From an uncultured Clostridia bacterium (GTDB lineage Bacteria > Bacillota > Clostridia > Christensenellales > Aristaeellaceae): DNA of 64,000 nucleotides. Of the stretch, positions 4,239-47,655 are shown piece by piece (the first letter of the stretch is position 1; every line of letters begins with the position of its first letter). The notes below the pieces were generated by a model. That model saw nothing but the letters and a program-made list of their open reading frames with translations, was not told where the DNA came from and searched no databases. Position numbers and translations under genes: made by a program. The stretch is taken from contig CAMNHF010000001.1 in the NCBI GenBank assembly GCA_946538975.1, positions 10,431 to 74,430 of the forward strand. Direction: 5' to 3'.

Positions 4239-4301
4239 ATGCACGCGGCAACCGTTCCTGCTCAGTTTCCGGGGGAAGGAGGATTTGGGCACTGATTGCA
4301 T

Positions 4302-4475
4302 ATGCTCAGGCGCAATTGCTGCCAGAACTACCACGTCCGCGTGGGCGACACCCTGGTAAAGATCACCGACAACTGCCCCGTGAACAAGAAGGTCTTCCAG
4401 GTGGGCGACGCGGCCTTCATCTCCTTCGCCCCCGACTGCGTGCACCTGCTGCAGGCCGAGACCGCCGAGGCATGA
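4302..4475 (+). pseudogene. 3' remnant of an ABC-transporter ATPase (TOBE-like C-terminal domain)
   Basis: My translation gives 57 aa: MLRRNCCQNYHVRVGDTLVKITDNCPVNKKVFQVGDAAFISFAPDCVHLLQAETAEA. This resembles only the C-terminal regulatory barrel of MalK/PotA-type ATPases. No Walker motifs or nearby RBS. In-frame stop at 4293. Confidence 0.4.
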
Positions 4476-4715: not shown

Positions 4716-4782
4716 TTTCCTGGATGCGGGCTTTTCACGGCCCCTATGAAAGAGACAAAACGAGGCTGCAGCACGCAGCCCC

Positions 4783-5883
4783 TCACAACCTCTCTCCGTT
4801 CTCGTCGAACAGGATGCCGCGCATGCACAGGCGGGGCTCGTCGCGGTCGTAGTCCCAGCTGTGGTGGGCGTCGCCGTCGCAGAAGCGCTTCACCGGGCAG
4901 GCGCAGCAGGTGGGATTGCGCTCCGCCAGGGACTGCCGGAAGATGCCGAAGCGCTCCCGCCAGACCTGCGTGAAGTCATCCCGGTAGATGCTGCCCTGGA
5001 TGGTCTTTGCATTGCGCTCGATGTCCAGGCAGGCGCAGATGTCCCCCTCGGCGGTGACGCTGGCCACGAGCCGCCCCGCCGCGCAGAGGTAGAACCAGTC
5101 GCGCACATCCCGCTCGAATTCCGGCCCCAGATAGTGGCAGCAGCCGTAGGTCACCGGCTGGCCCTTCTGCCGTTCCTCCCGGATGAAGCGCAGCACCCTC
5201 CGGTGGTCCTCCGGCGTGAGCAGCAGCTCCGGATGCAGGCGGGCCCTGCCGATCGGCTCGATGGCCGTCAGCCGCCAGGCGTCGATGTCCAGCCCCTTCA
5301 TCACCTCGTAGAGGACCGGCAGCTCGCCGATGTTCCGCCGCGTCACCACGGTGGTGATCATGACGTGGCGGAAGCCGCCGCAGTCCAGCAGCGCCTGAAT
5401 GCCCGCCATGGCCCGCTGCCAGGCCCCGGGCGCGCCCCGCATCGCGTCGTGGGTCGCCTCCAGCCCGTCGATGCTCACGGAGATCGTGCGCAGGCCCGTC
5501 TCCCGCAGGCGGCGGGCGGCCGCGGCGTCGATCAGTGTGGCGTTGGAGGTCATGCCCCAGCGGTAGCCCAGCGCCGCAGCGTCCGCCATGATGTCGAAGA
5601 AATCCTTCCGCAGCATGGGCTCGCCGCCGGTGATGCACAGCAGCAGGCCGGAGATGTCGAAGTCCCGGCGCACCTTCACCAGCAGGTCATGGATGACCGG
5701 CGCCGGCAGGTCCGCCGGGGGCACATCGCCGCAGCTGGAGCCGCAGTGCTCGCAGCGCAGGTTGCACCGGGTGGTCAGCTCGAGGAAGAGGTTCTGCAGC
5801 CGCGGCTCCCGGAAGAGCTGCTCCCGGTAGTCCGCCCGGGCCTCCAGATATTCGGCTTTCAACGCATCCCGATCCGCCATCAT
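4783..5883 (-). CDS. radical SAM/SPASM-domain peptide-modifying enzyme (putative RiPP maturase)
   Basis: CNLRCEHC (CxxxCxxC) about 40 aa from the chosen start, then GGEPML. C-terminal Cys-rich region: C-x12-GDICAC, then CCACPVKRFC. Start at MMADRD (aa 50 of ORF 4783..6030) with AAGGAG upstream. Confidence 0.85.
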   Translation of the reverse strand: MMADRDALKAEYLEARADYREQLFREPRLQNLFLELTTRCNLRCEHCGSSCGDVPPADLPAPVIHDLLVKVRRDFDISGLLLCITGGEPMLRKDFFDIMADAAALGYRWGMTSNATLIDAAAARRLRETGLRTISVSIDGLEATHDAMRGAPGAWQRAMAGIQALLDCGGFRHVMITTVVTRRNIGELPVLYEVMKGLDIDAWRLTAIEPIGRARLHPELLLTPEDHRRVLRFIREERQKGQPVTYGCCHYLGPEFERDVRDWFYLCAAGRLVASVTAEGDICACLDIERNAKTIQGSIYRDDFTQVWRERFGIFRQSLAERNPTCCACPVKRFCDGDAHHSWDYDRDEPRLCMRGILFDENGERL

Positions 5884-5897
5884 TCCGCATCGGCTCC

Positions 5898-6152
5898 TTA
5901 CATCTCGTTCGGGCCCGGACCGTAGACCGTTTCCATCAAGTGCTCCGCCTCCCGCTGCACTGCCTCCGCCGACGGCCGCTCCGCGGCAAGGCTCTCCCAG
6001 CGCCGGGCCAGCTTGTCCACGGCGCGGCATGTCTGCTCCAGAATCGCGTCCGCCGCGGGATTGGCGCAGCGGGCCAGATCATCCGCCATATCCTCCATCC
6101 CCCAGATCGCATCCATCAGGACGATCACAGGCATCAAGGGTCTCATGCGCAT
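5898..6152 (-). CDS. small ORF, putative RiPP precursor 1 (ends ...HLMETVYGPGPNEM)
   Basis: 84 codons (82 from the second ATG at 6146, which is better spaced from GGAAGGAGA). High GC3 like real genes. Stop lies 14 nt before the rSAM start. Shares its C-terminal motif and a leader block with ORF 6171..6416. Confidence 0.7.
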   Translation of the reverse strand: MRMRPLMPVIVLMDAIWGMEDMADDLARCANPAADAILEQTCRAVDKLARRWESLAAERPSAEAVQREAEHLMETVYGPGPNEM

Positions 6153-6170
6153 TCTCCTTCCTGCCGGCGC

Positions 6171-6416
6171 TCAGCGGTCCGGCCCGGGACCGTACACGAT
6201 CACCATCGGCGCTTCCCGTTCCCTGCGCCTGGCCATCTCCCGCAGCGGCCCGGCGTACTTGCGGAGCAGGCTGTTCAGTGTCCCGGCCGTTTCCTCCATC
6301 AGGCTGCAGACCTGCGGCTCGTCCTGACAGAAGGAGAAACCCTGTCCCAGCCGGCGGATCAGGTCCAGCCTCTCCTGCAGCTCGCGGATGCGCTGCTGCC
6401 GTTCATCGCTCTTCAT
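6171..6416 (-). CDS. small ORF, putative RiPP precursor 2 (ends ...APMVIVYGPGPDR)
   Basis: 81 codons with RBS GGAGGAGAG about 5 nt before the ATG and high GC3. Stop lies 18 nt before the next small ORF. Paralogous to ORF 5898..6152. Confidence 0.7.
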   Translation of the reverse strand: MKSDERQQRIRELQERLDLIRRLGQGFSFCQDEPQVCSLMEETAGTLNSLLRKYAGPLREMARRREREAPMVIVYGPGPDR

Positions 6417-6448
6417 ATGCTCTCTCCTCCCCTGCGCGGGATTGATGC

Positions 6449-6624
6449 GTTACTGCTCAGCGTCTGGGGGAAAGAAACCCTTTTCGAGGCCGAAAAGGGC
6501 TTTCCTTCCCCCAGGCCCCCATCTTTCCCCAAAGGCCTTTTCCTTTTGGGGGGAAGAGGTTTTTGCGATGCATGCGCAGCCGGACAGGCTCAGGCGCAAA
6601 TTGCCCTGCGGGCTGAGCAGTAAC
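6449..6624 (+). repeat. MITE/REP-like intergenic repeat, copy A (full length)
   Basis: Perfect 13-nt inverted termini GTTACTGCTCAGC (6449-6461) and GCTGAGCAGTAAC (6612-6624). ATTGATGC is present on both flanks (6441-6448 and 6625-6632). Internal long hairpin GGGGGAAAGAAACCCTTTTC..GAAAAGGGCTTTCCTTCCCCC. Related copies at 6708, 29441 and 47479. Confidence 0.75.
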
Positions 6625-6707: not shown

Positions 6708-6872
6708 GTTGCCGCCCAGCCCGCAGGCCAGGATCGCCTGAACGTGTCCCGGGACCGTGCAAAAACCCCCACTCCCAAAGAGAAGCCTTTTCGGAAGGAT
6801 AGGGGCCTGGGGGAAGGGAAAGCCTTTTCCGCCCGGAAAAGGGTGCCCTTCCCCCAGACACCGGGCAATAAC
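6708..6872 (-). repeat. MITE/REP-like intergenic repeat, copy B (inverted relative to A)
   Basis: The reverse complement aligns with copy A along its length (cccccagaca...ggaaaagg...tttttgcac...cctgcgggctgggcggcaac). Termini are degenerate. Confidence 0.65.
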
Positions 6873-6965
6873 CACAAATCGCTTGCATCCCGGCCTTTGT
6901 GTGGTAGAATAGGGCATGGCGAAGCCCTCTCCCGCATCCCCACAGACAGGAGTGCGATTCGTATC

Positions 6966-7892
6966 ATGATTGCCATCCCGCTGGCGAAAAAGATCGCCGA
7001 ACTCTTCCTGATCCTGTTCACGACGGCCGCGCTGGTCAAGGGCGGCGTCCTGAAGGCCGAGCACAGCCGCGTGCTGTCGAAGCTGTCGCTGTATTTCGTG
7101 ACCCCCTGCGTGATCTTCAACTCCTTCCAGAAGGAGCTCACGCCGGAGATCCTGCAGGGGCTGCTGGTCGCCTGCGGGCTGGCCGTCGTCTTTCAGGCGC
7201 TGTTCTTCCTGCTGGCGGCGGTGCTGCGGCGCGTCTGGCGGGCGACGGAGGTGGAGCGCGCCTCCGTGGTGTTCACCAATGTCGGCAACCTGATCATCCC
7301 GCTGGTCTCCTTCGCGAAGGGGCCGGAGTGGGTCATCTACACCAGCGCGTACATCCTGGTCTTCAACCTGCTTTTCTGGAACGTGGGCCTCAGCATGTTC
7401 GACAGCGAGCGGGCGCCGGATCTCCGCAAGGCGCTGCTGAACCCGAACATTCTGGCCATCGCGGCCGGGCTGATCGTGCTCTTCACCCGCCTGCGCCTGC
7501 CGGAGCCGCTGGCCCTGGCCTTCAGCGACGTGGCCGGCATGATCGGGCCGCTCAGCATGATGATCACCGGCATGGTGATCGGCGGCATGACCTTCCGCGG
7601 GATGTTCGCCAACCGCCGGGTGTTCGGCGTGATCTTCTTCCGGATGATCCTCGCCTCGGGCCTCGCCGTGTGCGCCGCGGCCCTCGCCGCCCGCGTCCTG
7701 CCGGTCGACAGGGGCATCGTGATGATCGCCCTGCTCGGGGCCATCGCGCCTTCTGCCTCCAACACGAACCAGGTGGCCATCCTCTACAACAAGGACGCCC
7801 CCTACGCCTCCGCGATCACCGTGCTGACCACTCTCTCCTGCATCGCGACCATCCCGCTCTGGGTGACGGTCTACGAGGCGCTGGCCGGTTGA
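6966..7892 (+). CDS. AEC (auxin efflux carrier) family transporter
   Basis: Polytopic membrane protein MIAIPLAKKIAELFLILFTTAALVKGGVL...NVGNLIIPLV...NPNILAIAAGL typical of the AEC family. Start at an internal Met, because the 5' part of ORF 6744..7892 lies in repeat copy B. Confidence 0.75.
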   Translation: MIAIPLAKKIAELFLILFTTAALVKGGVLKAEHSRVLSKLSLYFVTPCVIFNSFQKELTPEILQGLLVACGLAVVFQALFFLLAAVLRRVWRATEVERASVVFTNVGNLIIPLVSFAKGPEWVIYTSAYILVFNLLFWNVGLSMFDSERAPDLRKALLNPNILAIAAGLIVLFTRLRLPEPLALAFSDVAGMIGPLSMMITGMVIGGMTFRGMFANRRVFGVIFFRMILASGLAVCAAALAARVLPVDRGIVMIALLGAIAPSASNTNQVAILYNKDAPYASAITVLTTLSCIATIPLWVTVYEALAG

Positions 7893-29443: not shown

Positions 29444-29590
29444 GCAAAAACCGCCCCGGCACAGCGCATCCACAGAAAAAGCCCCCCTTTCCCCAAGGAA
29501 AGGCCTTTGGGGAAAGATGGGGGTCTGGGGGAAGGAAAGCCCTTTTCCGCCCGGAAAAGGGTTTCCTTCCCCCAGAAACTGCACATCAAT
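29441..29590 (-). repeat. MITE/REP-like intergenic repeat, copy C (truncated, same orientation as B)
   Basis: Contains the core ctgggggaaggaaagcccttttccgcccggaaaagggtttccttccccc and the ccccaaggaaaggcctttgggg hairpin. It lacks the distal ~60 bp and ends ...gcacatcaat next to the glucokinase stop. Confidence 0.65.
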
Positions 29591-47478: not shown

Positions 47479-47655
47479 GGTGCTGCTCAATGCCTAGGGG
47501 AAGGAAACCCTTTTCCCGGAGGAAAAGGGCTTTCCTTCCCCCAGACCCCCATCTTTCCGAAAAGGCCGTTCTTTGAGGAAGGGGGATTTTTGCACGATTG
47601 GCGTGCGCAGGAGGACACGCTCATGCGCATATTGCCCTGCGGGCTGAGTAGCAAC
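47479..47655 (+). repeat. MITE/REP-like intergenic repeat, copy D (full length, same orientation as A)
   Basis: Collinear with copy A from ...ctaggggaaggaaacccttttc... to ...attgccctgcgggctgagtagcaac. Termini are partly degenerate. Confidence 0.7.

Follow-up and report, generated by a model that had tools for sequence, protein, structure and literature searches.

The closest described relatives of the locus presented here are TIGR04133 ('rSAM_w_lipo') and TIGR04134, two NCBIfam hypothetical equivalogs which occur mainly in Bacteroidales and are curated, and also labelled in JGI annotation, as an 'rSAM/lipoprotein system' (rSAM, radical S-adenosylmethionine). No experimental characterisation of either family was found, and the two are known only as a bioinformatic gene pair. 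A comparable arrangement is present on a 64-kb stretch of genomic DNA from an uncultured Clostridia bacterium, which is referred to as the window throughout. Its minus strand carries, between positions 4783 and 6416, two small open reading frames (ORFs), ORF-A and ORF-B, followed by a gene encoding a radical SAM/SPASM enzyme and then by a terminator. An initial annotation made from the sequence alone had proposed these genes as a system for a ribosomally synthesised and post-translationally modified peptide (RiPP) outside all named families. The coordinates, sizes, ribosome-binding sites (RBSs) and gaps which it gave for the three-gene operon were all reproduced, and both small ORFs indeed end in VYGPGP. 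According to our analysis, the operon is an atypical, non-secreted instance of a large, uncharacterised, motif-directed radical SAM family. Its best explanation, which we regard as probable, is a leader-independent, motif-directed maturase acting on the C-terminal tails of the ORF-A and ORF-B proteins.

The comparison with Pfam and NCBIfam which the annotation had recommended returned TIGR04133 as the best model for the window enzyme. The match takes in nearly the whole model (positions 7-337 of 350), and with 269.3 bits against a cutoff of 425 the enzyme is not a member. Tested members of the YGPP-associated clade defined below scored 249-318 bits against this model and 17 other sequences 249-391 bits, a further one being without a match at E <= 1e-70, as against 512 and 457 bits for the true members P0193 and P0203. 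Because of these below-cutoff scores, and because no match to TIGR04134 was obtained for ORF-A, ORF-B or the four lipoproteins of relatives that were scanned, sequence comparison places the window enzyme in a sister clade of TIGR04133, outside that family. The earlier remark that no named family was recognised is to be qualified by this relationship to a curated, uncharacterised family. The nearest NCBIfam families after TIGR04133 include the small-molecule enzymes AhbD, NirJ and BlsE, and both peptide cross-linkers and decarboxylases are found among the nearest named families.

TIGR04133 loci resemble the window in that one or more substrate-like genes lie directly upstream of a compact SPASM enzyme. 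In three Bacteroidales-type contexts the true TIGR04133 enzymes follow one or two proteins matching TIGR04134 with 42-95 bits (L091 1999-2490; L093 1367-1849 and 1974-2468; L096 1524-1988 and 2009-2485). These five lipoproteins contain a single Y-[G/A/D]-x-P-x(2-3)-[F/Y]-E a few residues past the lipobox Cys, in the stretches CEYGTPYSKFE, EEYGVPHADFE, RYDLPYADFE, CVSLYAPLSVEF and CFLYASPHATYE. The Y-[G/A/D]-x-P after the lipobox resembles the C-VYGPP of many Firmicute partners, which suggests, as a lead from five sequences, that TIGR04133 and the YGPP clade may share a target type. The scaffolds themselves differ: in TIGR04134 proteins one motif accompanies a folded body that resembles CarboxypepD_reg (for one of them a faint Pfam match to this domain follows the motif), Firmicute partners are disordered, acidic and bear repeats, and the partners in the window are helical.

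A second point of comparison is the anaerobic sulfatase-maturating enzyme (anSME), a formylglycine-generating radical SAM enzyme whose target proteins share a short Pro-containing motif, have nothing else in common and are exported afterwards. Like the window enzyme, anSME (PDB 4K36-4K39) is a compact SPASM protein of about 370 amino acids without a RiPP precursor recognition element (RRE). It resembles the window family only distantly, at 18-19% identity and with E = 5e-11 against the family profile, and it does not appear in the 25 NCBIfam matches listed for the window enzyme. The substrate motifs also differ, C/S-x-P-x-R for anSME as against V-Y-G-P-P here, and ORF-A and ORF-B are without the sulfatase motif. 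The mycofactocin enzyme MftC (TIGR03962) is the third-best NCBIfam match of the window enzyme, with 122 bits over nearly its full length (residues 33-337), which is below the cutoff of 265. Its target in MftA is a Val-Tyr pair, and Val-Tyr also begins the window motif. MftC depends on the RRE protein MftB and on a substrate ending in GVY, whose terminal Tyr it decarboxylates, whereas the Tyr in the window is internal and no MftB-like ORF is present. Finally, the radical SAM enzymes for triceptides (three-residue cyclophanes) as well as PqqE, StrB/SuiB, RrrB and DarE are SPASM enzymes directed at an aromatic residue within a short motif. In triceptide precursors an aromatic-x-x unit often recurs, into which Y-G-P would fit. 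No family-level sequence match of the window enzyme to these cross-linker families was obtained. They depend on a leader or an RRE and yield small peptides, whereas here the motif occurs in whole proteins with signal peptides, dockerins and zinc ribbons.

Association of the enzyme family with Y-G-P-P proteins

Relatives of the window enzyme were surveyed in 80 genome loci, of which 76 have at least 300 nt of upstream sequence. The window enzyme shares 39-74% identity with the enzymes of these loci and the protein matches. We defined a YGPP-associated radical SAM clade by at least about 40% full-length identity and the presence of the invariant residues described below, and by its sequence the window enzyme falls within it. 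The clade is also marked by a directly adjacent same-strand gene encoding [VLI]-Y-G-P-P, in place of which the window has V-Y-G-P-G-P twice. The family is large and concentrated in abundant gut and rumen bacteria. Among 8,000 candidates scored, relatives at E <= 1e-20 formed more than 1,300 clusters (90% identity), named ones being assigned to Ruminococcus, Clostridiales and Oscillospiraceae; for a TIGR04133 member at least 7,700 clusters were counted at E <= 1e-60, and the two numbers probably overlap.

At nearly every relative locus one or more genes encoding (V/L)-Y-G-P-P lie directly upstream of the enzyme gene on the same strand. The pattern YG[PAVI]P was present within 1.5 kb upstream on the same strand in 61 of the 76 loci, and within 1.5 kb on either side in 69 of all 80. 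In the 1.5 kb of upstream same-strand sequence its density is 2.1 per kb, compared with 0.08 downstream, 0.09 farther off on that strand and 0.016 on the opposite strand. Where a motif ORF ended no more than 2.5 kb upstream (65 loci), such an ORF ended within 150 nt of the start of the radical SAM match in 62 cases. The association between enzyme family and motif is strong, extends across phyla and includes fusions of both in one polypeptide.

The composition of the motif was derived from 274 instances in the 80 loci, the window not included. YGPP makes up 239 of them. The preceding position is mostly occupied by V (177), followed by L (55) and I (10), and A, E and other residues are also accepted; P or E frequently stands at position +4, and 92 instances have F at position +6. 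Tyr and Gly hardly vary: in motif proteins the x of xGPP is Y in 239 of 239 cases and the x of YxPP is G in 239 of 241. Where Pro is missing from position +3, it is often found at +4, as in YGPAP, YGPMP, YGPSP, YGPQP and YGPKP. The last motif Tyr lies within eight residues of the C-terminus in 30 of 100 motif ORFs, and 31 of 100 carry a single copy. Comparison with these proteins argues strongly that the shared C-terminal motif is what ties the two small ORFs of the window to the adjacent enzyme.

The proteins which carry the motif are built on unrelated scaffolds, including lipoproteins, dockerin proteins, membrane-anchored proteins and double zinc-ribbon proteins. The lipoproteins consist of a signal peptide and an acidic, disordered body with one to seven repeats, often with C-VYGPP straight after the lipobox Cys. 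Some Ruminococcus scaffolds contain a dockerin domain (PF00404, E = 1e-11), the motif proteins of L062 and L064 have an N-terminal membrane domain, those of L073-L078 have two zinc ribbons joined by a linker that contains one C-[IL]-YGP-[PM]-P, and L068 encodes a protein with VYG[VI]P repeats. A domain scan of the YGPP proteins of eight relatives gave dockerin and zinc-ribbon domains and one weak, below-cutoff lipoprotein match only, and no family describing the YGPP repeat was among the matches. In a search of 1.84 billion representative proteins, two family members were found in which enzyme and motif are fused. In P0132 the radical SAM domain is followed by AVIYGPPEML (motif residues 402-406) and a zinc ribbon, and in P0136 by a zinc ribbon, TLYGPPPMN (motif residues 407-411) and a further zinc ribbon. 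Together with the diversity of scaffolds, these fusions provide the strongest evidence that the motif itself would be what the enzyme requires.

Several further arrangements were observed among the relatives. In two Ruminococcus loci (L025 133-3967 and L030 47-3967) six tandem genes for secreted proteins directly precede the radical SAM gene; each encoded protein bears YGPP motifs at either end and contains dockerin-like GDxNxDG repeats as well as Thr-rich linkers, which points to a cellulosome link. A subclade of the enzymes has a C-terminal extension of about 200 amino acids with the JAMM/MPN-type metalloprotease signature HxHx7-8Sx2D (P0140, P0141, P0145, P0146, P0148, P0150, P0156, P0166, P0178, P0179 and the fragment P0253), which could serve as a built-in processing peptidase. 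P0143 and P0144 have a length similar to this set (531-670 aa, fragment P0253 excepted) and gave no match to the regular expression. In L080 (3103-3701 and 5106-5981), a metagenome-assembled genome of the Bacilli, small helical proteins flank the radical SAM gene; by eye they appear WXG100/LXG-like. The downstream protein contains KYGVVP, KYGVAVP and AYGVQ motifs, and the L080 proteins may represent another type of substrate.

No paper on the system, on either family or on the motif was found, in a search which fell short on subscription journals. The literature matches for YGPGP turned out to be vaccine linkers, and the sole match for TIGR04134 was a typographical error for a type IX secretion system (T9SS) domain; both were discarded.

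The window enzyme and the two small proteins

The enzyme gene (4783..5883, minus strand) encodes a protein of 366 amino acids. The radical SAM assignment of the initial annotation is borne out by a match to PF04055 with 69.7 bits (cutoff 29.5), and the match to the SPASM model PF13186 reaches 22.9 bits, which is barely over the cutoff of 21.5. The cluster motif CNLRCEHC (C40, C44 and C47; residues 40-47, positions 5743..5766, minus strand) is invariant in the family alignment, and the 108 positions without variation among its 17 sequences are all retained in the window enzyme. An AlphaFold2 (AF2) model with a predicted local distance difference test score (pLDDT) of 87 shows a partial TIM barrel matching radical SAM structures. 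Nearest to it are SkfB, SuiB, BlsE, CteB, anSME, ChlB and PqqE at 13-21% identity; judged by coverage in both directions, anSME fits best (template modelling scores 0.67/0.67). Naming the reaction from these PDB homologues was rejected, as all seven are generic SPASM/twitch relatives at this level of identity.

Neither the enzyme nor the operon gave an RRE or PqqD match in Pfam or NCBIfam. In the profile alignments CteB is covered from residue 84 and SuiB from residue 108, past the RREs of both, and for this reason we regard the window enzyme as lacking this domain. The alignment to anSME begins at residue 11. Only about 30 residues, forming one helix, precede the CxxxCxxC motif of the window enzyme.

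The SPASM subfamily (PF13186/TIGR04085) is marked by the C-terminal seven-Cys motif CX9-15GX4C ... CX2CX5CX3C ... C, which binds two auxiliary 4Fe-4S clusters. In the window enzyme the auxiliary-cluster region comprises residues 248-353 (4825..5142, minus strand) and was delimited by invariant columns, PF13186 and the alignment to CteB. Its cysteines C248, C267, C285, C326, C329, C335 and C353 are invariant in the 17-sequence alignment and follow the spacing C267-x12-G280-x4-C285, C326-x2-C329-x5-C335 and C353. The ligand set of anSME is complete with eight Cys. In the window family none of the 17 members has the fourth Cys of CX2CX5CX3C; the stretch reads C335-x-G337-D-x-x-H341, with G337 and H341 invariant. 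Since this Cys is missing throughout the family, one auxiliary cluster may have an open site or a non-Cys ligand (His or Asp), and two clusters could then still be present.

ORF-A (6416..6171, minus strand, 81 aa) is preceded by the RBS GGAGGAGAG (6422..6430) and is supported by its sequence, its coding GC pattern, the AF2 prediction and gene calls in other assemblies. Its C-terminus reads REAPMVIVYGPGPDR before the stop codon and ends in VYGPGPDR (longer tail APMVIVYGPGPDR); the motif VYGPGP occupies residues 74-79 (6180..6197). After a gap of 18 nt follows ORF-B (5898..6152, minus strand), which encodes 84 amino acids from the ATG at 6152 and 82 from the ATG at 6146. The latter is the likelier start, because the RBS GGAAGGAGA (6153..6161) touches the first ATG and because the 82-aa form is also called on related contigs. 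ORF-B terminates in AEHLMETVYGPGPNEM and ends in VYGPGPNEM (longer tail HLMETVYGPGPNEM), with the motif at 5910..5927, and a gap of 14 nt separates it from the enzyme gene. An example of the tail peptides of the two small proteins is EAPMVIVYGPGPDR.

ORF-A and ORF-B are real genes and not chance ORFs. This follows from their coding GC, the rarity of the motif, the exclusively synonymous codon differences and the intact frames across assemblies. GC at codon positions 1/2/3 is 0.68/0.45/0.87 in ORF-A, 0.68/0.46/0.84 in ORF-B and 0.67/0.47/0.94 in the radical SAM gene, in agreement with the annotated high third-position GC. In all six frames of the window YGPxP or YGxPP occurs three times, twice as the ends of ORF-A and ORF-B and once as an unrelated internal YGPIP, and no other YGPxP protein is encoded in the 64 kb. 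The motif is written GTG TAC GGT CCC GGG CCG in ORF-A and GTC TAC GGT CCG GGC CCG in ORF-B, that is, with three synonymous and no non-synonymous differences in six codons. Both ORFs were gene-called and intact in several independent assemblies, and the five variable sites which distinguish five strain variants of ORF-B all lie outside the motif. Over 62 amino acids the two proteins share 29% identity (pairwise E = 6e-4), which makes a paralogy extending past the motif plausible but weak.

For ORF-A, AF2 predicts with modest confidence (pLDDT 74, two sequences aligned) a helical hairpin whose helices span residues 2-29 and 34-68. The last 13 residues are predicted to be disordered (tail pLDDT below 50), and the motif lies within this tail. 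Neither small protein has a canonical signal peptide or a lipobox, and nothing significant was found for them in Pfam or NCBIfam.

With respect to its closest relatives the window operon is unusual. The nearest enzymes examined, those of L001, L081, L082, L084, L088 and L089 with 64-74% identity, are preceded by a gene for a typical lipoprotein (MKK...LSGC) that bears YGPP two or three times; the upstream ORF of L088 is cut at the contig end and carries three. The window differs by the missing canonical signal peptide, the helical-hairpin body and the YGPGP form of the motif, which stands twice next to the enzyme as V-Y-G-P-G-P. As YGPxP with A, M, S, Q and K exists elsewhere, YGPGP would fit the minor Y-G-P-x-P form. 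The motif Tyr, 7 and 8 residues from the C-termini, is placed in a way that is ordinary for the family.

Proposed modification of the motif and competing explanations

We consider it probable that the three genes constitute a self-contained operon of an enzyme and its substrates, with ORF-A and ORF-B as the putative substrates. The enzyme would bind [V/L/I]-Y-G-P-x-P directly in a disordered stretch, without a leader or an RRE, and the 5'-deoxyadenosyl radical would then modify the motif. In the relatives, lipoprotein and other secreted substrates would receive the modification while still in the cytoplasm, ahead of Sec or lipoprotein export, in the way that anSME modifies sulfatases before they leave the cell; the substrates of the window probably stay in the cell. 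The logic would be that of anSME, in which a compact SPASM enzyme reads a short Pro-containing motif in unrelated proteins.

We infer that the motif is the site of modification. Since Tyr and Gly are strictly invariant, an aliphatic or beta-branched residue precedes them and Pro follows, the conservation pattern points to an attack at the Tyr or its immediate neighbours. Provided that the maturase explanation is right, hydrogen abstraction at or next to the Tyr might lead to an intramolecular cross-link, either from Tyr to Pro, as in the aromatic-x-x unit, or from Val to Tyr, as in mycofactocin; we put this forward with low confidence. Epimerisation, hydroxylation and desaturation are alternative chemistries, and no computed result discriminates among them.

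Several observations weigh against the maturase explanation. YGPG is absent from the 274 motif instances of the other loci, and the window peptides might be poor substrates or none at all. By homology searches the small ORFs appear as species-restricted orphans: a two-sequence profile run against 5.8 billion proteins, together with JGI metagenome contigs, returned strain-level copies of one species only. Substitutions between strains are denser in the small ORFs (6 per 246-249 nt) than in the radical SAM gene (3 per 1101 nt); the dN/dS estimates are about 0.3-0.6, with too few changes to mean anything. The short hydrophobic N-terminal stretch PLMPVIVLM in ORF-B could be a weak signal or membrane segment. 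Canonical YGPP lipoproteins may be encoded elsewhere in the genome and serve as the main substrates, and the chemistry of the YGPP-clade and TIGR04133 enzymes is inferred throughout.

The orphan status, the missing YGPG and the lipoproteins found at the small-ORF position in the nearest relatives would all agree with ORF-A and ORF-B being decoys, secondary substrates or evolutionary leftovers, such as what is left, with only the last motif, of a lost lipoprotein gene, while the true YGPP targets lie elsewhere in the genome. The higher substitution density would point in the same direction, if so few changes could be interpreted. We consider this explanation unlikely. Strong RBSs, tight spacing and coding third-position GC are present in both copies. 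The motif has been kept between paralogues of about 30% identity, with synonymous codon differences only, and the frames are intact in every assembly seen, including the five ORF-B variants. Apart from the unrelated YGPIP, moreover, the window offers no other YGPxP protein as a target.

In a classical leader-dependent RiPP, as which the initial annotation had read the locus, helical leaders of about 70 amino acids would dock to the enzyme and a VYGPGP core would be modified, cleaved and exported as a bioactive peptide. In favour of such a pathway, the radical SAM/SPASM gene stands next to a tandem pair of small ORFs that resemble precursors and have their C-terminal core in common. The closest solved structures by sequence and fold, CteB, SkfB and SuiB, are RiPP maturases, and the two N-terminal regions are weakly similar to each other. 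The association of motif ORFs with the maturase was confirmed in the 80 loci; the architecture of leader, core, cleavage and export found no support. An RRE is present neither in the enzyme nor in the operon, and the operon, closed by a terminator, contains no protease or transporter, nor is either conserved nearby. The supposed leaders are conserved among strains of one species only and have no homologues beyond it. The suggested neighbourhood comparison did recover genes encoding (V/L)YGPP ahead of most homologues, but not small ORFs ending in YGPGP. A common leader could not account for the recognition of a motif which in relatives sits in lipoproteins, dockerin proteins, zinc-ribbon proteins and even the enzyme. 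The core would, in addition, measure 6-9 residues only. A classical leader-dependent pathway is therefore quite improbable for this locus.

Very improbable is a third explanation, by which the small proteins are partners (regulators, chaperones or scaffolds) that dock via the motif while the enzyme acts on a small molecule or another protein. The small-molecule enzymes AhbD, NirJ and BlsE among the NCBIfam neighbours speak for it. Against it, up to seven motif copies, in secreted proteins and in disordered acidic linkers, fit a modification site and not a docking subunit, and no conserved third gene was evident in the contexts inspected, which were not surveyed systematically.

With the motif-directed maturase as the preferred explanation, the pairing of enzyme and motif at the level of the family outweighs the instance in the window in importance. 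If the motif is modified, many lipoproteins and dockerin proteins of Ruminococcus, Lachnospiraceae and Bacteroidales would bear a radical-derived modification introduced before export, which could alter the understanding of cell-surface and cellulosome biology. It would also be the second clear case, after anSME, of a SPASM enzyme which reads a short protein motif and not a leader. More tentatively, the modification may be a new one, placed without a leader on the Tyr of Y-G-P-x-P, which would be common in surface lipoproteins and cellulosome-associated proteins of gut and rumen Firmicutes and would, via TIGR04133/TIGR04134, also occur in Bacteroidales. For biochemical work the small proteins of the window offer the most convenient entry, as they have no signal peptide, one motif each and a disordered tail.

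Flanking regions of the operon

A terminator-like hairpin with a T-run (4762..4782, minus strand) lies directly 3' of the radical SAM stop codon and marks the end of the operon, which for this reason is taken to comprise three genes only. The flanking genes are unrelated, with a convergent gene for a WYL-domain regulator on one side and, past a repeat-rich intergenic region, a divergent gene for a Mem_trans permease on the other. Upstream of ORF-A the Rfam scan at gathering thresholds gave no riboswitch or other RNA, the only hits being two tRNAs elsewhere in the window. Three ORFs antisense to or overlapping the operon genes (4861..5925, plus strand, 354 aa; 5940..6623, plus strand, 227 aa; 4976..5638, minus strand, 220 aa) were rejected as chance products of a genome with 64% GC and should not be annotated.

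Between the terminator and the WYL regulator gene lies a 59-aa ORF (4296-4475, plus strand). Related contigs carry its apparent counterpart, called as a gene of 57 aa, in the corresponding place (L085 3549-3722, L086 1844-2017). The intergenic region upstream of ORF-A contains a palindromic element resembling repetitive extragenic palindromes or miniature inverted-repeat transposable elements (REP/MITE-like). Its two arms of 88 nt each (6449-6536 and 6785-6872) are 81% complementary, 248 nt apart and each able to form a hairpin. The 23-nt core CTGGGGGAAGGAAAGCCCTTTTC of this element occurs again at 29525-29575 and 47522-47544, with no chance matches expected. With its GTG start, the long ORF 6744..7892 is probably an over-extended version of the Mem_trans gene that runs into this repeat.

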